Assembly (NCBI GenBank): GCA_043808785.1
Contig: JAZDEL010000006.1
Location: 60,001-92,000, forward strand
Length of the DNA: 32,000 nucleotides
Direction of reading: 5' to 3'
Source of the DNA: Candidatus Iainarchaeum sp.
GTDB taxonomy: Archaea; Iainarchaeota; Iainarchaeia; Iainarchaeales; JAZDEL01
Both the position numbers and the translations under genes were made by a program. The notes beneath the pieces were generated by a model. The model saw nothing but the letters and a program-made list of their open reading frames with translations, had not been told where the DNA came from and did no database searches. Positions 3,216-18,628 of the stretch are shown one piece after another. Position 1 is the stretch's first letter. Every line of letters starts with the position of its first letter.

Positions 3216-3262
3216 ACTTCTACATAACTATGCAGGCGGCACCCTAGTTTCGTTGCTCCCTT
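3216..3262 (+). repeat. bipartite repeat, copy A (ACTTCTACATAAC ... GCTCCCTT)
   Basis: Box 1 is at 3216-3228 (13/13) and box 2 at 3255-3262 (8/8). The box 1 end to box 2 end distance is 34 nt. An imperfect hairpin pairs aggcggca with tgctccct. The element starts 12 nt after the stop of 2625..3203. Confidence 0.8.
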
Positions 3263-3296
3263 AGAATTACGGCTTAAAGGGGCTGAAAATTAGGGC

Positions 3297-3905
3297 TTAC
3301 CCCTTCATTGCCCTATACATCTTGTAGAATTCCGCAAGGCGCGGGGACGAGGAATAAGACTCCTTGAACCAGCCGCCGTTCACTACCTTGTCGGCGCGCT
3401 CCACAAGCAGTTTCTTGTACTGGGCATCGACATTCTGCCCTGCAGCGACCGCCTTTGCAATTGCCTGCATCTCGGAGTGCAATGATTCGGGAGCGCCGGA
3501 TTTTGAAGTAACATGCTGGCGCTCGAGCAGGGCCTCAAGCGAGGAAACAACCTCCTTATCGGAGAGGGTTTTTTCATCCATGTAATAAACCGCTTTCCAG
3601 TCCCCCTTGCCCCTCCAGAAGTGGCTCGGGTTCTTGCCTGTTTTGAAGAAGGTTGTCAGGCTGTTGAAGCCGCCCTGAGGGATAATTACGCAGTTCTTTC
3701 CCGGGCGCATATAGGGCACGCCTGAAAGCACGCCGTTCCTGTGGTAATGGTAGGTTTTGCCGTTGGATTTGGTGACGTTTTGAGTATAGCCGTAGATTGC
3801 GCGGAAGAGCTTCTGGTATGTATATGAGGAGTGCTTCACGGAATCGGGAAGAATGAACTTATATTGAATGAAATAACCTTTCAGTGCCACCAAGCAGACC
3901 CCCAC
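3297..3905 (-). CDS. hypothetical protein (start uncertain; GTG at 3905)
   Basis: 202-aa ORF with ordinary globular composition. No family was recognised from the sequence. Confidence 0.5.
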   Translation of the reverse strand: MGVCLVALKGYFIQYKFILPDSVKHSSYTYQKLFRAIYGYTQNVTKSNGKTYHYHRNGVLSGVPYMRPGKNCVIIPQGGFNSLTTFFKTGKNPSHFWRGKGDWKAVYYMDEKTLSDKEVVSSLEALLERQHVTSKSGAPESLHSEMQAIAKAVAAGQNVDAQYKKLLVERADKVVNGGWFKESYSSSPRLAEFYKMYRAMKG

Positions 3906-3944
3906 ACTTCCACTACTAACATAACTCTATCAAACTGAACTTGC

Positions 3945-3967
3945 TTATGTATAAGGATAATACATAA
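3945..3967. repeat. perfect inverted repeat TTATGTAT-aaggata-ATACATAA (box 1 core palindrome)
   Basis: 8-bp arms at 3945-3952 and 3960-3967 with a 7-bp spacer. The architecture matches 18571-18595. Confidence 0.7.
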
Positions 3968-4223
3968 ATACTATTATTTGGCACTAAACCTTTTTAAACA
4001 TATTTTGCGCGCGGGCGCGCGCAGGGAGCAATTGAAAACGCGTTTTTTGCGGTTGGCCGCGAAGGGAGCAACAAAATGCCGGGGGTTGCCTGCATGGTTT
4101 GCGCCGGATTTGAAAGAATCAGTAGCCGCGCCCGCGAAATGTACGGGCGCGTGCCAATAACCCTGCGAGTTTGTTTGGCGGGCGAAAATATCCGCGTCGC
4201 GCCCGCCCAAAAACGCGAAAACC

Positions 4224-4493
4224 TCAGTAACCCTGCGGACCCGGCTCTTCAGTAACCCTGCCGCCCGATACAAGGATTATGTCTTTTGTTGCCTTGACTG
4301 TCTTGTATGGTATGCTCTTTTCGCTTATGATTTTCTTCGCTTCCTGCTTTGTCTTTGCCCTGAGTGCCTCGGTTGTTATTGTTTCTACCCTGCCTTTCTC
4401 AAGGTTTATGACCAGGTCGAAGACCTTGCCCTTGTATTCGGCGCCTGTAGTGTAGATGTCCATGCCGAAGAGTTTAGATAATCTCATTGTCAT
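4224..4493 (-). CDS. PRC-barrel domain protein (small)
   Basis: The ATG at 4493 (MTMRLSKLFGMDIYTTGAEYKGKVFDLVINLEKGRVETI...) fits the archaeal PRC-barrel pattern. A GGGGTGG Shine-Dalgarno-like sequence lies 7-8 nt upstream. The 121 aa upstream in the tracked ORF look non-coding. Confidence 0.55.
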   Translation of the reverse strand: MTMRLSKLFGMDIYTTGAEYKGKVFDLVINLEKGRVETITTEALRAKTKQEAKKIISEKSIPYKTVKATKDIILVSGGRVTEEPGPQGY

Positions 4494-4849
4494 TTTTTCC
4501 ACCCCAAATTTTGGATCCAAAATTATTGGATTATTCTTGTTTATAATAAGCCCGCAGAAATATATAAATGTTTTGGTGCGTTCGGGGATATTTAATAGAT
4601 GCGGTTTGAGGTGCTTTTGGCAGGGTTCTGCGGCGGTTATACATAACCCTCGCGCAAAGGGGGCGATGTTTTTTAAGTTCCTGCGCAAGGGAGTAAGGAA
4701 TATACATAACCCTTCAAACGCCGAAACGCGTGGTTTTTTGGGGTTTGGTGCCCGAATTAGGCAAACCCCGCAGGAGGGGGCGCGGTGCCAAAGTCCCTGC
4801 TGCCAAAGCAATGCCGCAGTAGTGGAACCATGGGGGCGGCAACAGCAGC

Positions 4850-5185
4850 TCACCCTTCTTTGTATTTGCGTCTGTCTCCCTTGTAAATGCTGTGTCGCCT
4901 GCCTTGGTATCTAACTGGCTTTTTCTTCGGGGCGGGTTTGACTATTTTGAGTGAAGGCGTTTTACGTATCTTTCCAGTTGGTCTAAAAGCCAAGCCAGTA
5001 GGGCTGTGACCAGCGCGACCAAACAATCCGGCTCGTTCGAAGGGGCGCCACCGTCGTTTCCCACCGCTCCTTGTTCCAAACCCCGGAAGGTCTGGCGGAC
5101 CTTCAATCAGCCAGTTCCCCTTCTTCGCGCGTTCAATATTTTTTTTGAGCAAATTCACATTTGACATGCGTTTCTTGTTAATCAT
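4850..5185 (-). CDS. hypothetical very basic protein
   Basis: 111-aa Lys/Arg/Gly/Pro-rich ORF. An AT-rich TATA-like block (reverse complement of 5222-5236) lies upstream. No family was recognised. Confidence 0.35.
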   Translation of the reverse strand: MINKKRMSNVNLLKKNIERAKKGNWLIEGPPDLPGFGTRSGGKRRWRPFERAGLFGRAGHSPTGLAFRPTGKIRKTPSLKIVKPAPKKKPVRYQGRRHSIYKGDRRKYKEG

Positions 5186-5269
5186 TCAACCCCCCCTGCA
5201 GTTGCCGCCATAATTGACGCTTTTTTAATATATAACTCTTTCCTTCACAATTTGCATTTTGCAGGCCGC

Positions 5270-6346
5270 TTACAGCGAATCCAGCGGGCTTTTGACCTTC
5301 TTCAGTTCATCCGTCGAAACCTGCGTATAAATCTGCGTTGTGTTCAGGTTGCTGTGCCCTAAAAGCTCCTGGATTTTCCTTATGTTTTCCCCTGCCTCGA
5401 GGAGGTGCGTTGCGAAGGAGTGCCGCAGCGTGTGCGGCGTTACGTGCCTCTTTATTTCCGCTTTTTCCGCGGCTTCGCGGATTATCCTCTGCATTGTGTC
5501 TGAGGAGAGCTGCTTGCCGTTCTTCTTTGAAAAGAGGAACTCGCTCTGCACCTTTTTCTTTTTGAGGTATTTTTTTATGCCCGAAGTCCAGTCTTTTGAA
5601 AGTATAACGACGCGGTCCTTGTTTCCTTTGCCCCCTTTTACGCGCGCAATGCCCTCGTGCAGGTCTGCGTCCGCGGTGCGCATTTTTACGAGTTCGCTTA
5701 CGCGCAGGCCTGAGGAGTAAAGGAGCTCTACCATCAGCCTGTTCCTGCCGTGCTTTGTTGCCTTGATCAGCGCCCTTACCTCGTCCTGTGAAAGCACTGT
5801 TGGCAGTTTTTTCGCCTTTTTCGGGGATTTTATCTCATCGAGGATTTTCAGGCGCAGGAAGTTGTGGAAGAAGAATTTAAGGGCGGCGTGAACAAGCGCA
5901 AGGGTCGCGTTCGTGGAGTTTCTCTCTGATTTCATGTGTGCAAGGAATGCCACAACATCCTCGCGCGCGCAGGACTGTGCCGGCTTGCTGCTGTGCTCGA
6001 GAAAGGCCTTTGCGTACATGGAGTACATTTCAAGCGTGCGCTTGCTGTAGCCTGTAACCGTTAATTCCTGCTGGAAGCGCCTGAGGAGTTCGGCGTTCTC
6101 AGGGAGCAGAACTTTCGCTGTAGGTGATATTGGGGTTGGGTGTGCTGCGGGAGAAGTGGCACTAACCGCGGCTGCTGGTGTTCTGGCGCCTTCTAACCCC
6201 GCTACGCCTCCTTCCTCTTTTGCGGCATAATCATTTGCCATGCTACCATATTGGTTGAAGTCGTTAATATTCGTTTCCGCACCGTGCGTAACTCGGCAGA
6301 GCGCACTGCAATTAGGGCAAACACAAACCTTTTTTAATTTTCCCAA
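5270..6346 (-). CDS. tyrosine recombinase, XerA/XerC/D-like, with an N-terminal extension (TTG start at 6346; first ATG at 6241)
   Basis: The SAM-like N domain (LLRRFQQELTVTGYSKRTLEMYSMYAKAFLEH) is followed by a catalytic domain. Catalytic residues: Arg (SGLRVSEL), HTLRHSFATHLL (H-x-x-R...H) and LGHSNLNTTQIYTQV (Tyr). Confidence 0.85.
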   Translation of the reverse strand: MGKLKKVCVCPNCSALCRVTHGAETNINDFNQYGSMANDYAAKEEGGVAGLEGARTPAAAVSATSPAAHPTPISPTAKVLLPENAELLRRFQQELTVTGYSKRTLEMYSMYAKAFLEHSSKPAQSCAREDVVAFLAHMKSERNSTNATLALVHAALKFFFHNFLRLKILDEIKSPKKAKKLPTVLSQDEVRALIKATKHGRNRLMVELLYSSGLRVSELVKMRTADADLHEGIARVKGGKGNKDRVVILSKDWTSGIKKYLKKKKVQSEFLFSKKNGKQLSSDTMQRIIREAAEKAEIKRHVTPHTLRHSFATHLLEAGENIRKIQELLGHSNLNTTQIYTQVSTDELKKVKSPLDSL

Positions 6347-6354
6347 ACGCGGGC

Positions 6355-6366
6355 AAATTTATTAAA
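6355..6366 (+). promoter_or_regulatory. TATA box (AAATTTATTAAA) for the small ORF at 6390
   Basis: Centred about 29 nt upstream of the ATG at 6390. The start context is GATTTATG. Confidence 0.4.
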
Positions 6367-6389
6367 GCCTTACTAATCACAACTGATTT

Positions 6390-6584
6390 ATGCTTGGAAG
6401 GAAAAAAGCCGAAGGAAGGCCGATAAAGGAGAAGGCTGAGGACAAAATCTGGCGCTCGGAGTTCGAGCAGATGTCCCTTAAAGAGCACGACGCAAAGCTT
6501 GCACAGCTCGGGCTGGATGACGAGGATATAGAGGAATTCAACGGAAAGTTTGCGGGCAAGGCGGAGAAGAAGGGGAAGAAGTAA
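6390..6584 (+). CDS. small charged hypothetical protein (64 aa)
   Basis: ATG with leaderless promoter geometry and a Lys/Glu-rich sequence. A hairpin plus T-tract lies downstream. Confidence 0.5.
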   Translation: MLGRKKAEGRPIKEKAEDKIWRSEFEQMSLKEHDAKLAQLGLDDEDIEEFNGKFAGKAEKKGKK

Positions 6585-6625
6585 GGCGCCCTAAAAAACA
6601 AACAAAAACCGCTCGCGGTTAGCGC

Positions 6626-6657
6626 GAACCAGCGGTTCTGTTTTCGGGTTTGTTTTT
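6626..6657 (+). terminator. putative terminator: GAACC-agc-GGTTC hairpin followed by a T-rich tract
   Basis: 5-bp stem at 6626-6638, then TGTTTTCGGGTTTGTTTTT, downstream of the stop at 6584. Confidence 0.4.
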
Positions 6658-6662
6658 ATTGC

Positions 6663-6671
6663 ATTTTTATT
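6663..6671 (+). promoter_or_regulatory. TATA box (ATTTTTATT) for the HAD hydrolase gene
   Basis: Centred about 27 nt upstream of the ATG at 6694. The start context is GATTTATG. Confidence 0.4.
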
Positions 6672-6693
6672 CCTTTTCATCTCCAATTGATTT

Positions 6694-7398
6694 ATGCCCC
6701 GTATATGGCAGCCGAAAGCGGTGCTGTTCGACCTGGACAACACGCTCATCGATTTCATGCGCATGAAGCGCGCGTCCTGCGAGGCTGCAATTTCCGCAAT
6801 GATTGACGCAGGCCTGCAGCTCGGGCACGGGGAGGCATTTGGCAAGCTTTTCGCGCTTTACGACATACACGGGATAGAACACCAGCGCATTTTCCAGAAG
6901 TTCCTGAAGGATGTTTCGGGGGGCGTTGATTACCGCGTGCTTGCCGCGGGGATTACCGCATACAGGCGCACGCAGACGGGGTTCTTGGAACCATACCCTC
7001 ACGTGCGCACAACCCTCCTGCACCTTAAGGAGCGCGGGATAAAGCTCGGAATTGTAAGTGACGCACCGAGGCTCAGGGCGTGGATAAGGCTGAGCGAGAT
7101 GAACCTCTCGGGTTTTTTTGACGTTGTTGTAACTCTCGGTGATACAAAACGCAGGAAGCCGCACAGGATGCCTTTTGACGCGGCAATAAAGCTGCTCGGC
7201 ATGCGCGCGGATGAAATCCTTTTTGTCGGGGATAACCCTGCAAGGGATATTGCGGGGGCGAAAAAAGTAGGGATGAAAACCGCGCTTGCGGAATACGGGC
7301 TCGCAACCTCGGGCTTAACCGGCAGGGGGCCTGAGGCGGATTACGTGCTCAAGGATATTTCGGATTTAATGAGGATTGTCGGCAAACCAAACCCGTAA
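6694..7398 (+). CDS. HAD-superfamily hydrolase (phosphatase-like, subfamily IA)
   Basis: Motif I is FDLDNTL, motif II is GIVSDAP, and motifs III/IV are KRRKP...FVGDNPARDIAGAKKVGM. Confidence 0.8.
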   Translation: MPRIWQPKAVLFDLDNTLIDFMRMKRASCEAAISAMIDAGLQLGHGEAFGKLFALYDIHGIEHQRIFQKFLKDVSGGVDYRVLAAGITAYRRTQTGFLEPYPHVRTTLLHLKERGIKLGIVSDAPRLRAWIRLSEMNLSGFFDVVVTLGDTKRRKPHRMPFDAAIKLLGMRADEILFVGDNPARDIAGAKKVGMKTALAEYGLATSGLTGRGPEADYVLKDISDLMRIVGKPNP

Positions 7399-7495
7399 GC
7401 CGCACCCGCGAACGGAACCCTCATATATCCCCGCGGGTCGGAAACCGAACCCGATAGGGTTATATTTGTTTTTTCCGCAATTTGTACGGTTGGGC

Positions 7496-7657
7496 ATGCC
7501 GTTATTGCAAAGGACAGAAACAGTGGCAAGGGCGCCGAATTTTTCCGCGCAGCGCGCGGTTTCGTGCATGAATTGCGGAAAGGCGATCGAGGGCGGGAAT
7601 AACACTTATTCGCGCAGGTTCTGCTCGGATGCGTGCAGGCTCAGTTATTTGCTCTGA
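7496..7657 (+). CDS. small zinc-ribbon protein (53 aa)
   Basis: The ATG at 7496 is in frame within ORF 7376..7657. CMNCGKAI...RRFCSDACR forms a C-x2-C...C-x3-C zinc ribbon. A TATA-like TTATATTT lies about 33 nt upstream. Confidence 0.5.
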   Translation: MPLLQRTETVARAPNFSAQRAVSCMNCGKAIEGGNNTYSRRFCSDACRLSYLL

Positions 7658-7748
7658 ACGCGCGCGGGTGCGGGCGCAGTTGCCTGCCATGAACCACTTA
7701 ATCCTGCAGCGGCTCAATTCTGCGGCACGGCGAAACATTGTGGCGTGA

Positions 7749-7755
7749 TTTTTTT
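7749..7755 (+). terminator. oligo-T (T7) candidate archaeal terminator
   Basis: T7 run downstream of the 7496..7657 ORF, followed by a GGTTCG-gcttc-CGAACC hairpin. Confidence 0.35.
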
Positions 7756-7811
7756 ATGGTTCGGCTTCCGAACCCGCATATGCTTTAAGCATTTCCCCTA
7801 AGCCAAATATT

Positions 7812-8600: not shown

Positions 8601-8612
8601 GGAGGCGATATC

Positions 8613-8810
8613 GTGATAGGGAACTGCAAAAGGTGCGGAACCAAAGAGGAACTGCACGGGGGCATATGCGAGAACTGCAGGCTCGAGGCGCAGAATAAGA
8701 GGGAGCAGGAACTGCTCGGAACGGACAAGAAGAAAATGAGCAGGGAGGAAATCGAGCAGGAGCTTGCCGAGCACAGGAAGGACAAGAAGTTCTGGTGGGG
8801 GAAGGAATAG
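8613..8810 (+). CDS. small zinc-ribbon protein (GTG start)
   Basis: CKRCG...CENC motif. An AAGGAGG Shine-Dalgarno sequence lies 7 nt upstream of the GTG. The gene is tightly linked to nadE. Confidence 0.5.
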   Translation: MIGNCKRCGTKEELHGGICENCRLEAQNKREQELLGTDKKKMSREEIEQELAEHRKDKKFWWGKE

Positions 8811-8841
8811 TTAGGCGACTTTCCCAAACAAAAGTGCGTTA

Positions 8842-8888
8842 ACTTCTACATAACGGGTACAGGGAGCGAAGGATTTTGCTGCTCCCTT
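8842..8888 (+). repeat. bipartite repeat, copy B
   Basis: Box 1 is at 8842-8854 (13/13) and box 2 at 8881-8888 (8/8), 34 nt apart end to end. A perfect 7-bp hairpin pairs AGGGAGC (8861-8867) with GCTCCCT (8881-8887). The element starts 31 nt after the stop of 8613..8810. Confidence 0.85.
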
Positions 8889-8945
8889 TGAAGCCGGAAA
8901 ATGCGGGCAGCGGGCGTTTGCGGCATTCCTGCCGCGGGGCGGGCG

Positions 8946-11065: not shown

Positions 11066-12268
11066 TTATTTCTTGCCCCTGCCCTCCATGAACTTTCTTA
11101 TCCTCGCAAGCCCCCCATTTATGTCCTCGTCGGAAGCGGCATAGGAGAAGCGCAGGTAGTAATTGTTCGGGTCCGCCCTTTTGCCGAAGTGGATGTCGGC
11201 AAGCGTTGCAACCTCAGCCTCGTGCAGGAGCATTTTCCTGAATTCCTCGGAATCCTTTGCCCCGGCCATTTTGCAGGCCTTTGTAACATTCGGGTAGAGG
11301 TAAAACGCGCCTTTCGGCAGGGAGCAGTGCCAGCCCTCTATTTCGTTCAGGCCGTTAACCATCATATCGCGCCTGCGCTGGAATGTCTTGCGCATTTCCT
11401 CCGCCTTGCCCTGCGGCCCGGTAAGCGCCTCGACCCCTGCAAACTGGGTCATATGCGCAGCGCACGCTTCGGTATTTGTCACGAGCGTCGTGAAGAACGG
11501 CGCAAGCTTTGAATTGAGCGCCCAGCCCAGGCGCCAGCCTGTCATTGCGTAGGTTTTTGAGGCGCCGTCAACAACAATCGTGCGTTCTTTCATCCCTTCT
11601 ATCGAGGCGATGCTCTCGAATTTTTCCCCATACATTATGCGGTTGTAAACATCATCGCTGTAAACCCAGAAATCGTGGTCCTGTGCAAGGTCGGCAATAG
11701 CCTTCAGGTCAGGCTTGCCGAGCACGCCCCCCGTGGGGTTCTGCGGCGAGTTTATGAAGAGTAATTTTGTTTTGGGGGTGATAAGTTCCTTGAGGGTTTC
11801 CACTTCAAAAGAGAAGCCGCGCTCCTCTAGCAATGGCAATGCAACGGGCTTTGCGCCGTGGAAAATTGTCTGCGACTCGTAAATCGGGTAGCCGGGAGCA
11901 GGGTAAATTACCTCGTGCCCCTTTCCATACTCGGTTGCGGCAACAACAGAGTAGCCGATGAACGCCTTTGCACCCGCGCCTACAACAACATCGTCGGCGG
12001 AATATTCCGCGCCCGTAATCTTGCTCTCGTATTTGGCGATTGCATCCCTCAGTTCAGGTATTCCCGCGGAACCAGTGTAGCCGTGCTTGCCGTCATCAAC
12101 CGCCTTTTTCATTGCCGCGCAGATGTTGTCGGGCGTCCTGAAATTCGGCTGCCCTATGCAGAAACTGAGTATTTTCTTCCCCTGGCTGTTTAATTTGTTC
12201 ACCTCGGCAAGAACAGCGAAAGCGCTCTCCCCTGTAAGGTTTTTTGTCCTGTCTGAAACAGTAGCCAT
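11066..12268 (-). CDS. class I/II PLP-dependent aminotransferase (aspartate aminotransferase-like)
   Basis: NSPQNPTGGV and SKTYAMTGWRLGW (the PLP-binding lysine) are present. Length is 400 aa. A GGAGGTG Shine-Dalgarno sequence lies 6 nt upstream of the ATG. Confidence 0.85.
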   Translation of the reverse strand: MATVSDRTKNLTGESAFAVLAEVNKLNSQGKKILSFCIGQPNFRTPDNICAAMKKAVDDGKHGYTGSAGIPELRDAIAKYESKITGAEYSADDVVVGAGAKAFIGYSVVAATEYGKGHEVIYPAPGYPIYESQTIFHGAKPVALPLLEERGFSFEVETLKELITPKTKLLFINSPQNPTGGVLGKPDLKAIADLAQDHDFWVYSDDVYNRIMYGEKFESIASIEGMKERTIVVDGASKTYAMTGWRLGWALNSKLAPFFTTLVTNTEACAAHMTQFAGVEALTGPQGKAEEMRKTFQRRRDMMVNGLNEIEGWHCSLPKGAFYLYPNVTKACKMAGAKDSEEFRKMLLHEAEVATLADIHFGKRADPNNYYLRFSYAASDEDINGGLARIRKFMEGRGKK

Positions 12269-12325
12269 GTGCGCACCTCCGATTTTTGCGAATCTATGCC
12301 CGCAGGAATATCGGACTGCAAAAGC

Positions 12326-12334
12326 CTTTTATAC
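12326..12334 (+). promoter_or_regulatory. TATA box (CTTTTATAC) for 12357..12758
   Basis: Centred about 27 nt upstream of the ATG at 12357. Confidence 0.35.
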
Positions 12335-12356
12335 TGCTTGCCCGCTTTTAATTTTC

Positions 12357-12758
12357 ATGCGCTACGAACTCTGCGCAGCGGAAAGCAGGCGCGCAAGGGA
12401 ATTGATTGAGCTGCTGAAACTGAACCACGTGAAACCCGAAAGGGTTGTTGTTGTGCGGAGCAAGGGCACGAAAACAAGGCGCACAATCGCGCGCATACAC
12501 ACAATGGGGAAGGTGATGCAGCTGGCGATGGATCAGGAGCCTTTTTACGCGATTGAACTCATAGCCGAGCGCTACGACGGGCTGAGCGCGGAGGAGCAGA
12601 CAAAAACCATTATCCACGAACTCCTGCACATACCGCACGCTTTCGGCGGCGGGTTCAGGCACCACAAGGCGCATGTCAATGCGCGCACCGTGGATGAGGC
12701 GTACAGGCGGCTGCAGGCGAGGGAGCAAACCCTGCTCGGCGGGAAAACGAACTTTTAA
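12357..12758 (+). CDS. putative small zinc metallopeptidase (HExxH)
   Basis: ATG at 12357 (MRYELCAAE...). The motif IIHELLHIPHAFGGGFRHH is present in a protein of about 130 aa. Confidence 0.6.
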   Translation: MRYELCAAESRRARELIELLKLNHVKPERVVVVRSKGTKTRRTIARIHTMGKVMQLAMDQEPFYAIELIAERYDGLSAEEQTKTIIHELLHIPHAFGGGFRHHKAHVNARTVDEAYRRLQAREQTLLGGKTNF

Positions 12759-12815
12759 ATACAAAAACCGCAGTATTGTATCAGTAATTTTTCCGGGCTC
12801 GGGGTTGGTTTTGGC

Positions 12816-13430: not shown

Positions 13431-13458
13431 GTGCGTGCAGGAATAGAGAAATAGCGGT

Positions 13459-13521
13459 TCTTCTACATAACTAACTGCGTGCGGATGCCATTTTGCCTTA
13501 ATTTTAGCCCTTCGCATGCGG
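13459..13521 (+). repeat. bipartite repeat, copy C (variant)
   Basis: Box 1 TCTTCTACATAAC is at 13459-13471 (12/13). There is no box 2 at the canonical spacing; GCCCTT sits at 13507-13512. A 9-bp stem pairs CTGCGTGCG (13475-13483) with CGCATGCGG (13513-13521). The element starts 28 nt after the stop of 12816..13430. Confidence 0.65.
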
Positions 13522-13560
13522 GTTGTGCACGCTTTGGCCGTGCTGCACCGCCGCGGGAAG

Positions 13561-13568
13561 TATTATAA
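13561..13568 (+). promoter_or_regulatory. TATA box (TATTATAA) for the epimerase operon
   Basis: Centred about 27 nt upstream of the ATG at 13592. The start context is GATTTATG. Confidence 0.4.
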
Positions 13569-13591
13569 GCATTTTTCCGGAAAACCGATTT

Positions 13592-14557
13592 ATGGCTCTG
13601 CAAAACAAAAACGTGCTCGTAACCGGCGGCGCGGGCTTCATAGGCTCGGCGCTTGTGCGCCTGCTGCTTAAGGGGAAGGCAAACGTAACCGTGCTCGATA
13701 ATTTCCTCAGCGGCAGGAGAAGCAACCTCAAGGAGCTTGAAGGGAGCATCGAAATTGTTGAAGGGAGCATCCTTGGCGAAAACCTTGCGGAAACGCTTTC
13801 CTCGCGCAACATAGGGTTCGTGCTTAACCTTGCAGCGGAACCATACATACCGAAATGCTACGAAACTCCGAGGAGTTTTTTCGAGATAAACGCGCTCGGC
13901 GCGCTGAATGTCATGCTCGCGTGCAAGGAAGCGGGAATAACGCGCATTGTGCAGTACAGCAGTTCGGAGGTTTACGGCAGCGCGCTGAAAACCCCGATGG
14001 ATGAAACGCACCCAACGCTTCCCCGTTCCACTTATGCGGTGAGCAAGCTTGCCGCGGACAGGCTCTGCTACACGCTTAACCATGAGCAGGGTTTGCCAGT
14101 GGTTATTTTGAGGCAGTTCAATGTTTTCGGGCCGAGGGAAACGCACCCTTACATTATACCGGAACTTATCTCGCAGCTCTCAAGCACGGAAAAAATAACC
14201 CTCGGGAACATAAAGGCTAGCAGGGATTTCACTTATGTTGAGGATGCTGCACGCGCCGCGATGCTGCTTCTTGAGTGCAAAAATGCGGAAGGGGAAGCGG
14301 TAAACTGCGGCTTCGGCAAGGATTACACTGTCGAGGAAATGGCGGAAATAACCGCGGAGGTTGTGGGGCAGAAGAAGCCGAATATAACTATTGACCAGAA
14401 AAGGATTAGGCCTTTGGATGTGCAGTGCCTGCGCGCGGATTACTCGAAACTCAACAAACTCACGGGCTGGGAGCCGAAGGTAAGTTTCAGGGAAGGGCTT
14501 GAGAGGACCGTTGCATGGTTCAGGGAAAACAACAACAAGTGGGTCTGGGAAGAGTAG
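13592..14557 (+). CDS. NAD-dependent sugar-nucleotide epimerase/dehydratase (extended SDR)
   Basis: ATG at 13592 (MALQNKNVLVTGGAGFIGS). Rossmann fold GxxGxxG and catalytic YAVSK are present. Length is about 320 aa. Confidence 0.8.
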   Translation: MALQNKNVLVTGGAGFIGSALVRLLLKGKANVTVLDNFLSGRRSNLKELEGSIEIVEGSILGENLAETLSSRNIGFVLNLAAEPYIPKCYETPRSFFEINALGALNVMLACKEAGITRIVQYSSSEVYGSALKTPMDETHPTLPRSTYAVSKLAADRLCYTLNHEQGLPVVILRQFNVFGPRETHPYIIPELISQLSSTEKITLGNIKASRDFTYVEDAARAAMLLLECKNAEGEAVNCGFGKDYTVEEMAEITAEVVGQKKPNITIDQKRIRPLDVQCLRADYSKLNKLTGWEPKVSFREGLERTVAWFRENNNKWVWEE

Positions 14558-14560
14558 GTT

Positions 14561-15550
14561 ATGCCCCGTTTTTTGGTAACAGGCGCCAACGGTTTTGCGG
14601 CATCGCACCTGATAGGGCTGCTTCTCGCGCGCAAGGATGCAAGGGTTTTCGGCACCGTGAGGAAGGGTGCGGAACTTTCGCGTATCAGGCATCTGGCAAA
14701 AAACAAAAACTTCCGCAGGGTTTATTGCTCTCTCGGGGATGCGAAGGCTCTGCAAAGTGCGGTGCATTCTTCCGCCCCTGATTTTGTTTTTCACCTTGCC
14801 GCGCAGTCGTATGTTAAGGGCGCGCCTGCTGAATGCACGCTTAATGCCAATGTGCTCGGCTCCTTCAATCTTCTGGAGGCTGTGCGCAGGCACGCGCCCG
14901 ATGCAAGGGTCCAAATTGCGGGGAGCAGCGAGGAATACGGGCTTGTAAATGAGCGCTCCGCGCCCGTGCTTGAGTCTGCAACGCTTAAGCCCGCGACAAT
15001 TTACGGCGTGAGCAAGGCAGCGATGGAGTTTTTCGGCTCCGCATTTCATGCAACTTATGGCATGGAAATAATCACAACGCGCGCATTCAACCATGCTGGC
15101 GCGGGGCAGAATGATAATTTCGTTTTGAGTTCATGGGCTAGGCAGGTTGCGGAAATAGAGGCGGGGAAGAAAGGTGCGGCAATGCCTGCGGGCAAAGGCG
15201 CGGATGCGGTTCTCCGCGTCGGCAACCTTGAGGTAAGGCGCGATTTTTTGGATGTAAGGGATGTTGTAAGCGCGTATGTTTTGTGTGCGGAGGAAGGCAA
15301 GGCAGGGGAGGCGTACAACGTGTGCTCCGGCACGGCGCCTGCGCTGCGCGGACTGCTGGATGCCCTGCTGCGGCTTACGGATAAGCGGATTAAGGTTGAA
15401 ACAGACACCTCACTTTTGCGCAAATCGGGCGTTGACATCCCGCTGATGCTTGGCGATAACGGAAAACTTAAGGCGCTTGGCTGGGAAAGGCGCGTTACCC
15501 AGGAAAAGATGCTTGCGGATTTGCTCGATTACTGGCGCGCGCGGGTTTGA
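14561..15550 (+). CDS. NAD-dependent epimerase/dehydratase (GDP-sugar dehydratase/reductase-like extended SDR)
   Basis: LVTGANGFAASHL and catalytic YGVSKAA are present. The start lies 3 nt after the upstream stop. Confidence 0.75.
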   Translation: MPRFLVTGANGFAASHLIGLLLARKDARVFGTVRKGAELSRIRHLAKNKNFRRVYCSLGDAKALQSAVHSSAPDFVFHLAAQSYVKGAPAECTLNANVLGSFNLLEAVRRHAPDARVQIAGSSEEYGLVNERSAPVLESATLKPATIYGVSKAAMEFFGSAFHATYGMEIITTRAFNHAGAGQNDNFVLSSWARQVAEIEAGKKGAAMPAGKGADAVLRVGNLEVRRDFLDVRDVVSAYVLCAEEGKAGEAYNVCSGTAPALRGLLDALLRLTDKRIKVETDTSLLRKSGVDIPLMLGDNGKLKALGWERRVTQEKMLADLLDYWRARV

Positions 15551-15915
15551 AGTTCGACCGGCTTTAAATTTTCCCAGTTTTCAAGGACCTGGTCCCTAAG
15601 TTTCTGTGGGAACTTCACCCCCGCGTTTTTCTTGTTTCTTTTATTGTTTCCATTGAGCATTCTGTGGTCGACAAGGAACCTTTTTACTCTTTCACCCCCG
15701 CCTTTTCTGGAAAAGAAATCACGCGCTCTTTCATACTTCTCGTACTTAACCGGATAGGCGGGGGCGACAACTCTTCTATCCCCGTTTGGCAAAAATTCGA
15801 TAAAATAATGCGCGCCGGTTACGGCGTGCTGAAATACGCGTATGTTTTTTCCTTTTTTGCCGCTGGTCTGCCAGGGCGGGTTCTTAAAATTTTTCACTTC
15901 AAACGGTCGGGGCAT
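15529..15915 (-). CDS. hypothetical protein
   Basis: 128-aa ORF with an ATG start. Its 3' end overlaps the convergent 14561..15550 by 22 nt. No family was recognised. Confidence 0.4.
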   Translation of the reverse strand: MPRPFEVKNFKNPPWQTSGKKGKNIRVFQHAVTGAHYFIEFLPNGDRRVVAPAYPVKYEKYERARDFFSRKGGGERVKRFLVDHRMLNGNNKRNKKNAGVKFPQKLRDQVLENWENLKPVELQTRARQ

Positions 15916-15969
15916 TATCCAACAACAGGGGCAAAGCCGTATTTATTCCTTTCCCGTTCGCGGGGAAAG

Positions 15970-15979
15970 GGTTAAATTC
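15970..15979 (+). promoter_or_regulatory. TATA-like box (GGTTAAATTC) for 16000..16533
   Basis: Centred about 25 nt upstream of the ATG at 16000. Confidence 0.35.
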
Positions 15980-15999
15980 GGGCGTGCGGTTGTTTTGTT

Positions 16000-16533
16000 A
16001 TGCCTCTAAATCCCAGACCTGCCCGAAAGCGGGAGAAGAGAACGCGCCCCATAAATATCCAGAAAAAAGCAGAGAGGGATGCGCTGATAAACACGCTAAG
16101 GCGGGCTGAGGAGCTCGGGCAGGGCGCCATAATGCAGCACGGGAGCGGAAAATATCACCCGAAAACAGTACGGGGCGTTCTCGCGCTTTTAGGGGCGCCT
16201 GCAGGTTCGCTGTTTATTCTTTACGGGCTCAGGCCCGCGGAAACCCTGGAGAGGGGGATAGGGCCCGGGCTGAAGGTAATGCGCAGCGCCGGCGGGGGCC
16301 TTACAGGGTTCTTCTGCATAAAGCAGAAAAACGAGAGGGGAACTTCTTATTTTATGCCGCTATTTCTGCACGGGCCTTTGCAAAAGCCGGGCTGTTGGGA
16401 CCGTTACAGCGCAGGCATATATTCCCTCGGCGACCTTCTTAAGCTGTTGAAACTCGGGAAGCCGCGGTTTTACGGGGCGAAGGTAAATGCGGGCGGCGGC
16501 TGGCTTTACAAGCTGCCGGAGCTGGCGGAGTAA
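16000..16533 (+). CDS. hypothetical protein
   Basis: 177-aa ORF with leaderless promoter geometry. No family was recognised. Confidence 0.45.
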   Translation: MPLNPRPARKREKRTRPINIQKKAERDALINTLRRAEELGQGAIMQHGSGKYHPKTVRGVLALLGAPAGSLFILYGLRPAETLERGIGPGLKVMRSAGGGLTGFFCIKQKNERGTSYFMPLFLHGPLQKPGCWDRYSAGIYSLGDLLKLLKLGKPRFYGAKVNAGGGWLYKLPELAE

Positions 16534-16593
16534 CCCGAAGCGCGCAAACCAAAAATTTAAGAGGAACGGGGCTGTTTATCTGTTGCGAGGTGA

Positions 16594-16965
16594 TTGGTTT
16601 TGCCTGGAAAAATGGGCGGGAGCAACAGGATTAGTAGTAAGCAGATTCGGGATGTAATAAAACAGAAAAAAGCGGGCTACATAGGCAAGCCGGCAACCGT
16701 CGATATATTGGAACTCCATTACGCAAACTCCATGTTGAAGAGAATTAATATGGCGAAGACTCTTGGCGGCTTGAGAGGGGTGAGGCAGGAGTTGAAGATG
16801 CACACAGAACATACGAACCTTGGGCATGGAAGGGGGCTTGTTATTTCCCCCATGAGCCACGGTGAAACCTCGGACCTTGTGACTGCCGGCGTATGGCGGC
16901 ACAAAGAACTCCTAGGGCTTTTGGAGAAACGGCTGGCTGAAAGGGAGAAGGAGTTGGGGCGCTGA
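16594..16965 (+). CDS. hypothetical protein (start uncertain: TTG 16594, TTG 16600 or ATG 16612)
   Basis: The ORF is preceded by a GAGGTGA Shine-Dalgarno-like sequence at 16587-16593, best spaced for the TTG at 16600. No family was recognised. Confidence 0.4.
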   Translation: MVLPGKMGGSNRISSKQIRDVIKQKKAGYIGKPATVDILELHYANSMLKRINMAKTLGGLRGVRQELKMHTEHTNLGHGRGLVISPMSHGETSDLVTAGVWRHKELLGLLEKRLAEREKELGR

Positions 16966-17112
16966 GGCTAAGCCTTAAACATGCTTTGCAGTAGGAACGG
17001 ACCACTTAATAGAGAGGGCAAAAAAGGAAACTATGCATACATCCAAAAATGCGCGCCCGAAGAGTATTTAATCAGACAATAGATGCGTCGCACCGGAAAT
17101 GCACCCTCCAAA

Positions 17113-17121
17113 CATTTAAAT
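17113..17121 (+). promoter_or_regulatory. TATA box (CATTTAAAT) for the LAGLIDADG gene
   Basis: Centred about 30 nt upstream of the ATG at 17147. Confidence 0.35.
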
Positions 17122-17146
17122 CCGTCAATCGCCTATTTTTTACTGA

Positions 17147-17770
17147 ATGATATCTGACGAATACATAATGGGCTTTGTCGAGGGCGAGGGCTGCTTCAGC
17201 ATAACGCTGCAGCGTTACTTTGACCGCAAGCCCAGGGCAACTGGCCGCAGGAACAACCGCAAGCACAAGGCGTTTCCGATACGGTTGGCTCCAAGCTTCA
17301 GGATTACGATAAGGGAGAAAGACAGGCGCGTGCTTGATGAGATTAAGGAAAAGTTCGGTTTTGGCTCCATTTATTTGCAAAGGAGACAGGGGGAAAATTG
17401 CCAGGATACTTGCCAATATGTTGTAGAAACCTTTGGGGATTTGTTTGTTCTGGTGGATTTCTTCTCAATGCAGACTTTTTACACTCAGAAAGGTGAGGAT
17501 TTCAGAAAATGGGCCCAGGCTCTCGAGATTTTCAAATCCGGCGGGCATTTAACAAAGGAGGGCGCGCTGGAGATTTGTAGGCTCAGGGACTGCATGAACC
17601 TACGGATGAACAAAGGCAACCGTGTTTCCGAAGAGGTTAAGGCTCTCCTCGAGGAGAAACGCGAGCACATTCTGGCGCATGCAGACAAAAATCAGAGTAA
17701 ACTTCTACATAATTGTGATGGGGCACTGCCCAAATCGCCGTTCCCTTTGACGCAGCAACCCACACCCTAA
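17147..17770 (+). CDS. free-standing LAGLIDADG homing endonuclease (single-motif, homodimer type)
   Basis: The N-terminal YIMGFVEGEGCFSI is a canonical LAGLIDADG motif. Size is about 200 aa. The last ~23 codons run through repeat copy D, so the original C-terminus may have been altered. Confidence 0.75.
   Translation: MISDEYIMGFVEGEGCFSITLQRYFDRKPRATGRRNNRKHKAFPIRLAPSFRITIREKDRRVLDEIKEKFGFGSIYLQRRQGENCQDTCQYVVETFGDLFVLVDFFSMQTFYTQKGEDFRKWAQALEIFKSGGHLTKEGALEICRLRDCMNLRMNKGNRVSEEVKALLEEKREHILAHADKNQSKLLHNCDGALPKSPFPLTQQPTP
17701..17747 (+). repeat. bipartite repeat, copy D
   Basis: Box 1 ACTTCTACATAAT is at 17701-17713 (12/13) and box 2 GTTCCCTT at 17740-17747 (7/8), 34 nt apart end to end. 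The element lies inside the 3' end of the LAGLIDADG ORF. Confidence 0.75.
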
Positions 17771-18059
17771 GCCGTTACGAACAGGAACTGCCTCAAGTTA
17801 ATTTGTCGATTTCGCCTGTATTGCATCTAAAACTGTTCAAATGCCAAAAACAACCCCCTATGTTCCACTACTGTTATTCCGATATGGCATAAAATACTCC
17901 TTATTTGCCCTCAGGATGCAAGATAAACAATATTATGCTGTAAAATCCCTTCGCAAAATTTCGCAAAATTGAAAAAAACGCACATGGGTTTTGGCGGGCT
18001 TCCTTAAGGGGCTTTGGCTGGTTTGCGAAGCGGCTCTGAGGGCGCCTGAAATGGTTCTG

Positions 18060-18106
18060 AAGGGAGCAGCGGACTGGCTCCGGCGCCTGCATGGTTATGT
18101 AGAAGT
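18060..18106 (-). repeat. bipartite repeat, copy E (minus orientation)
   Basis: The reverse complement of 18094-18106 is ACTTCTACATAAC (13/13). The reverse complement of 18060-18067 is GCTCCCTT (8/8). Spacing is 34 nt. The hairpin is GGAGC/GCTCC. The element starts 22 nt after the stop of the minus-strand ORF 18129..18521. Confidence 0.85.
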
Positions 18107-18128
18107 TAGATCCGGTTTTTGCTTAAAA

Positions 18129-18521
18129 TCAGCGCTTTTTGCGCGTGCGCATCCAGGCGCGCATATTGAAGCGCAGGGTGTTAAAGCCACCCCTTATGCT
18201 GCGCCCAAGTTCCCTTCTGTTGAACTTCCGCACAAGCGCCTTTATTTTCTTTCCCTGCATGCCTGAAATCTCAAAAACGCCCCTTTCTTTATCGAACGCA
18301 ATTTCCGCGCCCCCGGAGCGGATAAAACGCATAAATTTATCTATATCATTTGCCCTTTTTGCGCGCCCGTTCGCATACAGCACATCAGGCCTGTTTTCTT
18401 CAGGAAATATTGCGCCATAGCGCAGATAGTAAAACGGGCCGATATACTCCCTGTCGCGGTGTGCGCTCAGCCTACCACCCCTAATCCTCGGGGCTTTCTC
18501 CCGCTCTTTTGTGTTTGGCAT
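18129..18521 (-). CDS. hypothetical basic protein (ATG 18521; alternative GTG 18545)
   Basis: ORF of about 130 aa, Arg/Lys-rich, flanked by inverted repeat copies E and F. No family or catalytic motif was recognised. Confidence 0.45.
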   Translation of the reverse strand: MPNTKEREKAPRIRGGRLSAHRDREYIGPFYYLRYGAIFPEENRPDVLYANGRAKRANDIDKFMRFIRSGGAEIAFDKERGVFEISGMQGKKIKALVRKFNRRELGRSIRGGFNTLRFNMRAWMRTRKKR

Positions 18522-18570
18522 TGCAAATAGAATGTGTTTGCACAAATATAATGCTTTCGGAGGAGGTATA

Positions 18571-18628
18571 GTTATGTATAACCTAACTACATAACCCTGC
18601 TCCCGAGCGCCGATATTTGCGCTCCCTT
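18571..18628 (+). repeat. bipartite repeat, copy F, preceded by an inverted box 1 core
   Basis: GTTATGTA (18571-18578) and TACATAAC (18588-18595) form a perfect 8-bp inverted repeat. Box 2 GCTCCCTT is at 18621-18628, 33 nt from the end of box 1. The hairpin is GAGCGC/GCGCTC. Confidence 0.75.

Follow-up and report, generated by a model that had tools for sequence, protein, structure and literature searches.

A polar two-box DNA element conserved across Diapherotrites and its possible relation to a terminus/dif region

The window analysed here, a stretch of 32,000 nucleotides, comes from a Candidatus Diapherotrites MAG. At 17147..17770 (plus strand) it carries a gene for a single-domain LAGLIDADG protein whose tail coincides with one copy of a repeated element (copy D). 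Nine loci from relatives were examined, and in seven of them an ortholog of this gene occupies the equivalent place; the C-terminal tail of the protein is predicted to be disordered (pLDDT <50). A second gene, at 5270..6346 (minus strand) and ~12 kb from the region between copies D and E, encodes a XerA-type tyrosine recombinase with a Phage_integrase domain. The product scores 289 bits with the equivalog model NF040815 (recomb_XerA_Arch), whose cutoff is 220; because the match spans residues 90–351, the start codon is uncertain.

The repeated element consists of two short boxes. Box 1 (ACTTCTACATAAY), reported as repeated in the first-pass annotation, indeed has six matches in the window at up to two mismatches, where 0.49 would be expected, and six or more were found in none of 100 shuffled windows. 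The matches start at 3216, 8842, 13459 (with one mismatch) and 17701 on the plus strand, and at 18106 and 22249 on the minus strand. Box 1 can also be written ACTTCTACATAAC or, in its 13-bp form, ACTT[C/A]TACATAAC. Box 2 (GCTCCCTT) has ten matches in the window against 1.49 expected.

Copy A (3216..3262, plus strand) has box 1 at 3216-3228 and, after 26 nt of spacer, box 2 at 3255-3262, and lies in a convergent intergenic region. Copy B (8842..8888, plus strand) has the same layout and faces a convergent transketolase gene. Copies D (17701..17747, plus strand; box 1 ACTTCTACATAAT, box 2 the variant GTTCCCTT) and E (18060..18106, minus strand; box 1 18106-18094, box 2 18067-18060) form the left and right halves of an inverted pair. 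Over box 1 and the start of the spacer, A and E are identical at 22 of 23 nt. The regular spacing described earlier stands in five copies, at 26 nt in A, B, D and E and 25 nt in F, but not in copy C (13459..13471, plus strand), which is box 1 alone (TCTTCTACATAAC) and lacks box 2 where the spacing would put it. Copy F had been listed among the copies of the element; its box 2 is present (18621..18628, plus strand), whereas its box 1 is just the 9-nt core CTACATAAC. This core is the right arm of a 25-bp palindrome at 18571..18595, GTTATGTAT-AACCTAA-CTACATAAC, which has a 9-7-9 layout with the box 1 core in both arms and ends 25 nt before box 2. One copy, G (22237..22249, minus strand), had been overlooked. 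It is box 1 alone (ACTTATACATAAC), begins 6 nt past the stop codon of the gene for the small AcnX subunit and extends over the start of the isopentenyl phosphate kinase (IPK) gene.

Several copies lie just past stop codons, in gene orientation. The distances given previously were correct: A starts 12 nt past the stop of ORF 2625-3203, B 31 nt past the small ORF 8613-8810, C 28 nt past a DUF1003 gene and E 22 nt past the stop of gene 18129-18521, while the 3′ end of ORF 17147-17770 contains D. This siting is a real feature, although it is also expected of any polar intergenic motif in a compact genome whose genes are polarised to the same locus.

The element is common to relatives throughout Diapherotrites, a group of tiny archaea. 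Forty copies, from 14 loci with GC contents of 34–52%, share an invariant box 1; the loci were collected via the LAGLIDADG gene or HMG-CoA synthase, so all lie near the same locus, and part of the copies are orthologous duplicates and hence not independent cases. In relatives of 34–53% GC the box is unchanged whether it stands in non-coding sequence, in one of three reading frames (among its translations are LLHN in the LAGLIDADG tail and FYIT or, as in copy G, LYIT at the start of the IPK gene) and antisense in a gene. Copies C, D, E and G have orthologous counterparts in other genomes, with invariant boxes amid diverged spacers and flanks. In locus L133, for example, the counterpart of C (+2772) also follows a DUF1003 gene and also lacks box 2, and that of G (-13144) agrees with box 1 in all 13 positions. 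These orthologous positions speak against a REP/MITE-like mobile repeat, one of three roles suggested in the first pass.

They likewise make it very hard to credit that the copies are functionless, MITE-like relics of the 3′ end of a LAGLIDADG homing-endonuclease gene (HEG), dispersed by homing or gene conversion. Copy D forms the tail of the LAGLIDADG coding sequence, copy A read in the same frame gives ENKTA-LLHN...LLP followed by a stop, like the DENQTQ-LLHN of LAGLIDADG orthologs, and long-spacer copies in L135 resemble tail DNA (GATTTGAAGAAGTGGTTGCTTCC). However, homology to the LAGLIDADG gene ends ~15 nt upstream of box 1, copies are kept at orthologous non-HEG positions, and the D/E pair is kept in L082 and L087, which have no LAGLIDADG gene at the locus. 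Invariance of the boxes across the phylum, with diverged surroundings, points to purifying selection rather than decay.

A 3′-UTR RNA motif had also been proposed, with a hairpin retained through different 5′ arms. Such a hairpin is not a general property of the copies. Of 17 copies folded, just F (z = -4.6) and one copy from a relative (z = -2.2) folded better than shuffles, and the remainder did no better (z -1.3 to +1.2). When the stem of copy B was imposed on the 13 copies of equal spacer length, 46.2% of cells were paired, against 46.7% in shuffles, and no compensatory changes were found among these copies. Since box 1 is invariant across reading frames, disorder is predicted for the LAGLIDADG tail and no hairpin signal appears, selection would seem to act on the nucleotide sequence itself and not on the protein or on RNA structure. 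Perfectly conserved copies with no co-oriented gene upstream, and an exact copy antisense within a gene, also speak against the 3′-UTR role. The element thus looks like a DNA-level site rather than an RNA motif.

The main rival to a DNA site at a special locus is a signal for gene ends, in which box 1, with box 2, would be a factor-dependent terminator, a roadblock or an mRNA 3′-end signal. It would serve about one gene in six, and the polarity of the element would mirror gene orientation. Around 18 copies start -1 to 90 nt past a co-oriented stop codon, mostly within 40 nt; two overlap a stop codon, and in one case the stop codon (the TAA in L136) is itself part of the copy. No oligo-T tracts of the kind usual in archaeal terminators accompany the copies in the window, and A and B face convergent genes, where blocking read-through would be useful. 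Nevertheless, this explanation is unlikely, given the lack of conserved RNA structure and the existence of perfect copies without a co-oriented upstream gene (E-type copies in L121, L082, L087 and L137; L135 -2975; L136 +2195). In addition, an exact copy lies antisense within a glycosyltransferase gene (L137 +1865), and two further Diapherotrites regions of 21 kb each, with co-oriented genes, contain no copies.

The orientation of the copies bears on the same question. At up to one mismatch and across six loci, all 25 copies are aimed at the D–E locus (p = 6e-8), as are 15 of 15 when the D/E pairs are left out, a polarity that is confounded with a strong gene-strand bias. In 115.5 kb of flanks, TCTACATAA occurs 16 times toward the locus and never away from it, against ~0.4 expected per strand by our own estimate, and ranks first of 1651 9-mers by polarisation; the most polarised 7-mer and 8-mer are TCTACAT and TCTACATA. 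The test that separates gene from locus is significant at just p = 0.013 (Fisher), in a gene set that consists in part of our own calls for the window: a copy is found at the 3′ end of 18 of 118 majority-orientation genes and 0 of 33 minority-orientation genes. Together with the copies that have no co-oriented gene upstream, this argues that polarity follows the locus rather than the gene.

Across the relatives, the inverted pair D/E flanks a conserved non-coding region of 170–310 nt, which in the window (17748..18059) contains an AT-rich core, a dif-like repeat and an ORB-like motif. The dif-like imperfect inverted repeat (17916..17943), ATGCAAGATAA-ACAATA-TTATGCTGTAA, has the form TAA-N6-TTA, following the dif criterion TAA(N)6-8TTA (PMC11840125); it emerged from a relaxed, anchored search, a strict search for such a repeat having found none. 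Between its arms, 7 of 11 positions are complementary, and the repeat agrees with Escherichia coli dif at 16 of 28 positions. Equivalents are present in all nine loci, 120–132 nt from E in eight. Six of the nine match E. coli dif at 14–17 of 28 positions, much as Thermococcales and bacterial dif have 14–18 of 28 in common, and the other three match at 9–11. Arm symmetry is weak in several genomes (5–7 of 11), and the repeat could alternatively be a TATA-like promoter. The dif site of Thermococcus kodakarensis, too, is intergenic and lies between convergent genes (PMC11840125).

Gene orientation and GC3 skew switch at the D–E region in the sense of a terminus. The convergence of genes is kept in all loci, and cumulative GC skew reaches its maximum here. 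On the left, plus-strand GC3 skew is +0.147 in plus-strand genes and +0.010 in minus-strand genes; on the right it is -0.195 in minus-strand genes and +0.098 in plus-strand genes, and the part of the skew independent of strand thus comes to about +0.08 (left) and -0.05 (right). The ORB-like motif (17854..17870, minus strand; TAGTGGAAC-ATA-GGGGG) is one of three in the window against 0.28 expected, the euryarchaeal consensus being GTTCCAGTGGAAAC-AAA----GGGGG (PMC1868953). Its place inside the D–E region would suggest an origin, not a terminus. On sequence grounds, the locus is probably a dif-like spot where chromosome replication finishes.

The third role offered at first, a recombinase-type DNA site, comes nearest to the evidence, because box 1 resembles a Xer/dif half-site (its end, ...ACATAA, is like that of a Xer/dif arm), recurs in palindrome arms and brackets the dif-like repeat, and because XerA is encoded in the window. 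We tentatively favour a broader reading, though somewhat short of even confidence: a family of protein-bound, polar DNA sites that marks a terminus/dif region, like KOPS, Ter or XDS. The inverted pair D and E encloses the non-coding region with its dif-like repeat, and the remaining copies, on both sides, are aimed at it. We infer binding of the boxes by a protein that organises the terminus, for which XerA is the most economical candidate and the neighbouring LAGLIDADG protein an alternative. The boxes would then be polar markers or half-sites beside dif. They might steer a translocase or recombinase to dif (as KOPS or ASPS do), unload or stall machinery near the terminus (XDS-like), or act as a replication fork trap (Ter-like). 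Box 1, invariant and 13 bp long, would be the essential part, with box 2, (G)CTCCCTT, as an optional second contact 26–27 bp downstream and an A-tract ~10 bp upstream of box 1 likewise optional. A long variant of the element has box 2 45–47 bp downstream of box 1. The role of box 2, and the likeness of some spacers to one another and to LAGLIDADG tail DNA, are left unexplained by simple protein binding, and the two 21-kb regions free of copies likewise count against this reading.

The arm order of the palindrome at 18571..18595 (TTATG...CATAA) is opposite to that of true dif (CATAA...TTATG), which counts against the favoured reading. The palindrome is kept in eight loci as TTATGTAG-CATYTRA-CTACATAA, ~430–470 nt beyond E, and lineages carry unrelated genes between it and E. 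In nine loci this position holds four different families or orphans, shared just within L118/L135 and L121/L087; the following gene, in the five loci compared, is orthologous throughout. This turnover recalls recombination sites delimiting mobile gene cassettes, integron-like or IMEX-like, with box 1 half-sites and the palindrome as substrates of a XerA-type recombinase, small genes inserted between them and new copies arising via insertion. The 9-7-9 palindrome has the layout of a tyrosine-recombinase core site. Further, the LAGLIDADG gene is present in L121 and absent from its close relative L082, direct copies lie on both sides of it in L121, L118 and L135, a toxin–antitoxin pair lies between two direct copies in L135, and some spacers, besides the stretch common to A and E, are common to non-orthologous copies. 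Cassette boundaries are still improbable: copies also follow housekeeping genes at orthologous positions (AcnX/IPK, IDI2, DUF1003), single boxes without a partner arm are incomplete core sites, the palindrome arms face outward relative to dif, and the inversion of orientation at one locus is left unexplained.

The palindrome also precedes the inferred start of gene 18129-18521 by ~55 bp, as would suit a full operator, with box 1 as the half-site of a dimeric transcription factor. Alternatively, box 1 could be an unusual BRE/TATA element, with box 2 near the transcription start. In L011 and L130/L070 a TATA-like tract belonging to the next gene directly adjoins box 2, and the 26-nt spacing of the boxes resembles the archaeal TATA-to-start distance. 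Both versions are quite improbable, as ordinary promoters here (GAAAGC-ATTATATT, ~22 nt before a leaderless ATG) are distinct from box 1, convergent genes lie opposite A, B and the copy at L087 -6337, box 2 stands anywhere from 13 to >100 nt before the next start codon, and the position of the palindrome is fixed relative to E, not to any particular gene.

Box-1-type sequences also occur near the recombinase gene. A second palindrome (3945..3967), TTATGTAT-AAGGATA-ATACATAA, lies 1.3 kb from xerA and adjoins an ORB-like motif (3899-3915, minus strand). Two direct copies of the box 1 core TATACATAACCC (4638..4712, plus strand), 63 nt apart, are followed downstream by a further ORB-like motif at 4820-4836 (plus strand).

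Box 1, the conserved 13-nt part of the element, was searched for in the window as ACTTCTACATAAY with at most two mismatches, the family pattern being ACTT[CA]TACATAAC. This gave six matches against 0.49 expected, a number reached in none of 100 shuffles, and so confirms the repetition of box 1 in copies A to E that the first-pass annotation had described. The sites lie at 3216 (+, copy A), 8842 (+, B), 13459 (+, C, one mismatch), 17701 (+, D), 18106 (-, E) and 22249 (-), the last of which (ACTTATACATAAC, copy G) was absent from the original list. Box 2, the 8-nt downstream part (GCTCCCTT), occurs ten times in the window, where 1.49 occurrences are expected. The gap that separates it from box 1 is exactly 26 nt in A, B and E, the same in D, where box 2 has the variant form GTTCCCTT, and 25 nt in F. 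The proposed bipartite form therefore stands for these five copies, and not for C, which lacks box 2. Copy F carries box 2, but its box 1 is reduced to the core CTACATAAC, which is the right arm of a palindrome at 18571-18595 (GTTATGTAT-AACCTAA-CTACATAAC). The distances to the upstream stop codon given for A, B, C and E (12, 31, 28 and 22 nt, respectively) are correct, and D lies within an ORF, as claimed.

Pattern scans of genome and metagenome collections recovered the same bipartite element in the Iainarchaeum/Diapherotrites contigs L011, L070, L082, L087, L118, L121 and L130, so that the suggested search of related genomes did yield further copies. The remaining matches were mostly chance, bacterial hits, the first pattern used on the genome collection having been too loose. 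Two other Diapherotrites regions (L140 and L141) held no copy in 21 kb each. Among 18 tabulated copies, box 1 equals the consensus in 15; window copy D and one copy in L118 (L118b) are off by one base, and F has the core only. CTCCCTT, with at most one mismatch, stands 26-27 nt downstream of box 1 in 15 of the 18 (range 22-29 nt), and the spacers are mutually unrelated. Six of the tabulated copies were retrieved via box 1 alone and five of these carry box 2, so the bipartite form was not created by the pattern used. Some copies have a longer spacer, of 45-47 nt. Across 40 distinct copies, nothing else stands out except an A at positions -11 and -10, in approximately 73%. When orthologous regions were compared, as the first reading had advised, C, D, E and G proved to have counterparts at the same positions in other genomes, with invariant boxes and diverged spacers and flanks.

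Only one viral contig matched the bipartite pattern (L132, IMG/VR, 5.5 kb, at 530-576), where the match adjoins a gene for a tape-measure-like protein of 1016 aa. About one such match is expected by chance, and a viral origin was therefore discarded. A comparison of the window with a phage collection gave no match.

Copies D and E form an inverted pair around a non-coding region (17748-18059), here called the D-E locus. Copy D is the tail of ORF 17147-17770, which encodes a LAGLIDADG_1 protein, and the genes adjoining the element pair in L118 and L121 are homologs of this ORF. There are 40 homologs with E < 1e-10 (40-72% identity), mostly from Diapherotrites MAGs. The protein is single-domain and related to each half of the I-OnuI family. 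Its modelled core has pLDDT >90, while tail residues 170-207 fall below 50. Alignment of the proteins shows a nearly invariant L[LI]HN at the C-terminus, which is box 1 read in frame 2, and the GEG motif is invariant among the syntenic proteins. At the syntenic locus, the gene occupies 17147-17770 in the window, 212-898 in L118, 495-1178 in L121, 6747-7364 in L133, 1586-2236 in L135, 10001-10660 in L136 and 10001-10684 in L137. It lies between direct copies of the element in L121, L118 and L135. L082, a close relative of L121, and L087 have no LAGLIDADG gene at this locus and keep the inverted pair. The motif thus flags a LAGLIDADG gene that is held at one locus in most genomes examined, which is unusual for a homing endonuclease. 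The gene could encode a fixed or domesticated endonuclease, or one that is still homing beside a conserved site.

Box 1 is kept across quite different coding contexts. It is read as FYIT or LYIT at the start of the isopentenyl phosphate kinase gene (window and L133), supplies the stop codon of a gene in L136, overlaps stop codons in L135 and L137, and lies antisense within a glycosyltransferase gene in L137. Consequently, the constraint acts at the nucleotide level. A further box 1-type sequence, ACTTCTACATAAA, lies within the HMG-CoA reductase gene (L138 9049-9061 and L139 8948-8960), where it is read as NFYIN and points to the locus. Either coding chance or a copy that the gene tolerates may account for it.

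The hairpin that the first-pass annotation considered to be kept with different 5' arms did not survive analysis. When 17 copies, taken from the window and from relatives, were folded, just two did better than shuffles, namely F (z = -4.6) and one copy in L118 (L118c, z = -2.2); the other 15 range from -1.3 to +1.2, and several are essentially unstructured. In the 13 copies that align gap-free (27 nt to CTCCCTT), the stem of copy B is paired in 46.2% of cells compared with 46.7% in shuffles, and its covariation score is lower than the shuffle mean. Rfam detects tRNA-Met as the sole family in the window, and none in the D-E region or the loci of relatives even at permissive E-values. With neither a conserved fold, nor compensatory changes, nor an Rfam match to the element, the suggested structured 3'-UTR RNA motif finds no support. 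The same goes for a REP/MITE-like repeat, given that hairpin-forming structure is lacking in 15 of 17 copies and that positions are orthologous and boxes invariant. The element does not start a small RNA gene either, as no similarity links the stretches that follow A, B, D, E and F, and none of them has a terminator.

Integron attC sites are defined by complementary R''/R' core sites (RYYYAAC / GTTRRRY) that pair in the folded strand. The element resembles them in marking gene 3' ends in gene orientation, in having conserved ends with a centre of variable length, and in flanking accessory genes (toxin-antitoxin pairs, orphans). However, the end of box 1 (ACATAAC) is not complementary to box 2, no hairpin forms, housekeeping genes are also tagged, the host is archaeal, and the intI/attI platform is absent; the initial view that the site is not attC-like was correct. 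So was the exclusion of an oligo-T terminator. Archaeal intrinsic terminators carry an oligo-T tract of five or more T at the transcript end, while T5 is absent within A, B, D and E and, from a reading of the copy listing, occurs within 40 nt downstream in only about 7 of 40 copies. Archaeal BRE/TATA elements occupy a fixed place approximately 24-38 bp upstream of a leaderless start codon or of the site where transcription starts. Here, the interval between the element and the following start codon ranges from 13 to over 100 nt, convergent genes lie opposite several of the copies, and ordinary TATA-like tracts sit elsewhere, so this promoter class was rejected. Nor is box 1 the usual TATA box of the organism, whose ordinary promoters are GAAAGC-ATTATATT-like. 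Lastly, a dif/Xer core site comprises two inverted 11-bp arms spaced 6-8 bp apart, and the 47-nt element was rejected as such a site, since its dispersed copies show a single arm-like box that lacks an inverted partner at 6-8 nt. Its features thus place the element outside the REP/MITE, attC, intrinsic terminator, BRE/TATA promoter and dif core site classes.

Across six loci, every one of the 25 copies that have no more than one mismatch points toward the D-E locus (p = 6e-8), although the loci were all reached through one neighbourhood and some copies are orthologous, hence not independent. Leaving out the locus-defining D/E pairs gives 15 of 15, and the most distant polar copy lies 22 kb out (L138, +3031). 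This polarity is confounded with gene strand bias, for which a control was made by counting every word in 115.5 kb of flanks, D and E excluded. In these flanks, which extend to approximately 25 kb or less from the locus, TCTACATAA occurs 16 times toward the locus and never away from it, ranking first of 1651 9-mers. TCTACAT and TCTACATA likewise top the 7-mers and 8-mers in polarity. A copy at the 3' end is found in 18 of 118 majority-orientation genes but in none of 33 minority-orientation genes (Fisher p = 0.013), and several copies have no co-oriented gene upstream. Polarity is therefore not simply linked to genes.

The LAGLIDADG loci and their gene calls were fetched from five further assemblies (L133/L134, L135, L136 and L137, with L138 extending L135). 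All show a plus-strand LAGLIDADG gene, then 170-310 nt of non-coding DNA, then an inverted E-type box 1, and the genes left of this region lie predominantly on the plus strand, those right of it on the minus strand. Within the D-E interior, a core of the form ATTATRYYG - N12 - CGAAGGGAAATTTTGRAAAAAC is conserved. Its orientation relative to the LAGLIDADG gene is the same in nine of nine loci, and an invertible D-E segment was therefore dismissed. A relaxed search anchored on the conserved arm TTATRYYG found a dif-like imperfect inverted repeat at 17916-17943 (ATGCAAGATAA-ACAATA-TTATGCTGTAA), with 11-bp arms and a 6-bp spacer in the arrangement TAA-N6-TTA. TAA(N)6-8TTA is the most conserved feature of archaeal dif (PMC11840125). 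In the window, 7 of the 11 arm positions are complementary, compared with 5-10 in relatives, and the window repeat matches E. coli dif at 16 of 28 positions, where published Thermococcales dif sites have 14-18 of 28 in common with bacterial dif. Its end is 120-132 nt distant from E in eight of nine loci. When arms had to match at 9 or more of 11 positions, the search returned nothing conserved, TAA-N6-8-TTA with strict arms was found in L082 only, and a candidate emerges in every locus only through the anchored, relaxed search; for this reason the dif-like repeat is regarded as a moderate candidate. The dif site of T. kodakarensis sits between convergent genes (PMC11840125). The 11-bp arms, the TAA-N6-TTA form, the convergent genes and an XerA equivalog recall archaeal dif/XerA systems, from which the 47-nt element itself differs in having one arm only.

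Composition around the locus has the sense of a terminus. To the left, plus-strand GC3 skew is +0.147 for plus-strand genes and +0.010 for minus-strand genes; to the right, the values are +0.098 and -0.195. What remains independent of strand is approximately +0.08 left of the locus and -0.05 right of it. Across the window, cumulative GC skew reaches its maximum at 16-18 kb.

In archaeal origins, inverted ORB copies surround an AT-rich DUE beside orc1/cdc6. An ORB-like motif, TAGTGGAAS-N1-3-GGGGG, occurs in the D-E interior, on one of its two sides, once per D-E locus, and an origin in place of a terminus would fit this. The form with N3 has three occurrences in the window against 0.28 expected (3899-3915, minus; 4820-4836, plus; 17854-17870, minus), all near box-1-type sequences, and resembles the mini-ORB core and G-string of the ORB consensus (PMC1868953). 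However, no orc1/cdc6 gene was found within 10-25 kb of any locus, and the genes would be head-on to replication. The motifs at 3899-3915 and 4820-4836 are inverted around approximately 900 bp that contain a PRC-barrel gene.

The palindrome that includes the box 1 core of copy F also belongs to the locus. In eight loci, TTATGTAG-CATYTRA-CTACATAA lies approximately 430-470 nt beyond E; both arms are the box 1 core, and the central 7 nt keep one orientation. It has the same 9-7-9 layout as a tyrosine-recombinase core site and differs from dif in the reverse order of its arms and its 7-bp centre. LAGLIDADG enzymes cleave with a 4-bp geometry, on which basis the odd-numbered centre makes a homodimeric LAGLIDADG target unlikely. 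A second box-1-type palindrome is situated at 3945-3967, 1.3 kb from xerA (5270-6346), whose product passes the archaeal XerA equivalog model, scoring 289 bits where 220 is the cutoff.

A single small gene occupies the interval from E to the palindrome (window 18129-18521, whose product is 100% identical to a hypothetical protein of a Candidatus Diapherotrites MAG; L133 7724-8053; L135 2532-2915; L136 10927-11310; L118 1156-1554; L121 approximately 1483-1899). Its identity changes with lineage: the nine loci show four different families or orphans, examples being an orphan, a cyclophilin-like protein and a membrane protein, and a common gene is seen only within L118/L135 and L121/L087. The gene that follows (window 18781-19137) is orthologous in all five loci compared. 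The interval is thus a variable slot bounded by box 1 sites. Between this palindrome and the end of gene 18781-19137, the intergenic stretch 18640-18780 contains direct repeats (CAAATGGGCGCA / CAAAATGGGCGCA) together with a pair of short palindromes (TTCGGCTTGAGCCGAA and ATTGGCGCTGCCAAT), a dense structure with no Rfam match.

Some copies share more than their boxes. A (3216-3238) and E (18084-18106), 15 kb apart and inverted to each other, are identical at 22 of 23 nt, 10 of which fall in the otherwise variable spacer, and the spacer start CATAATCTCGCC is common to L121 +369 and L135 -2525. Such shared starts suggest duplication or gene conversion between copies. Together with the resemblance of long-spacer copies to LAGLIDADG tail DNA, the likeness of A and E points to duplication or recombination between copies and keeps alive a model of cassette recombination between them, which we nevertheless consider very doubtful.

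Our tentative reading, to which we give slightly less than an even chance, is that the element represents a family of polar protein-binding DNA sites of the terminus region, because a strongly selected polar word converges on a conserved, dif-like and terminus-like locus. XerA would be the most economical candidate for the protein that binds box 1, given that the terminal ACATAA of box 1 resembles the end of a dif arm and that, in our own comparison, 7 of 11 positions agree between box 1 and the arms of the local dif-like repeat. The other candidate is the LAGLIDADG protein encoded next to the locus. The role of the sites might be to guide some factor to dif, to unload or stall machinery, or to stop replication forks.

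By analogy, the element would work most like KOPS/ASPS, Ter or XDS. With KOPS, AIMS and ASPS it shares an over-represented and fully skewed word (TCTACATAA, 16:0) that switches orientation where the dif-like site and the terminus-type skew lie, a pattern seen here within approximately 25 kb or less of the locus. In contrast, KOPS are 8-mers and ASPS 4-mers found genome-wide through coding DNA, while the element is a 13-mer with an optional second box, mostly intergenic and seen to approximately 22 kb from the locus. To our knowledge, Archaea lack FtsK, and we know of no reader protein. Ter/Tus of E. coli and RTP of B. subtilis likewise involve asymmetric sites in two opposed groups flanking the terminus, as observed here; the innermost inverted pair adjoins a conserved gene for a DNA-binding protein (here LAGLIDADG), and the sites are bipartite. 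The IRI/IRII repeats beside rtp are 47-48 nt long. There is, however, no sequence or protein homology, and the element is far denser, at approximately one per 1-8 kb. We know of no archaeal fork trap. Like XDS and MatP/matS, the element may comprise dedicated protein-binding sites concentrated around the terminus; matS differs in being palindromic. The end of box 1, ACATAA, as in a dif arm, recalls XDS, dif-like sites to which XerD binds and by which SMC is unloaded around the terminus of B. subtilis (PMC11894783, PMC11840125).

A more specific proposal, which we think unlikely, is a dedicated Diapherotrites terminus system that would be new for Archaea. Polar bipartite sites of approximately 47 bp would flank dif in two groups of opposite orientation. 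Their binder would be a domesticated single-domain LAGLIDADG protein, encoded right beside the innermost site, or else XerA, and the system would act as a fork trap or directional guide to dif in hosts without Tus/RTP and FtsK. The archaeal polar skews described are those of 4-nt ASPS only (PMC2958812), and a literature search returned no description of the element's sequence, which gave unrelated primers only, or of such a system in Diapherotrites. If the terminus reading holds, the element would be the first long, sequence-defined polar motif of chromosome architecture in Archaea, and would give the first access to the sites and mechanisms by which replication ends and chromosome dimers are resolved in DPANN archaea. 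The motif could also help to order and orient Diapherotrites MAG contigs.

The window also encodes archaeal mevalonate-pathway genes and a tRNA-Met of 87 nt with a possible intron. The latter lies in a region (1579-6346) that also includes unannotated ORFs, copy A, the palindrome at 3945-3967, two of the ORB-like motifs, two TATACATAACCC repeats and xerA; this could be an integrated element beside a tRNA, or a site module linked to xerA. A tandem 29-nt AT-rich repeat (GTAATTACCGTAAATAATTTAGGTAAATA, 83% identical) lies at 2096-2155, just upstream of ORF 2157-2624. ORF 12087-12758 carries a 'putative phage metallopeptidase' domain (PF18894) and, given its homologs in L011 and L087, is probably a resident gene and not a prophage marker.
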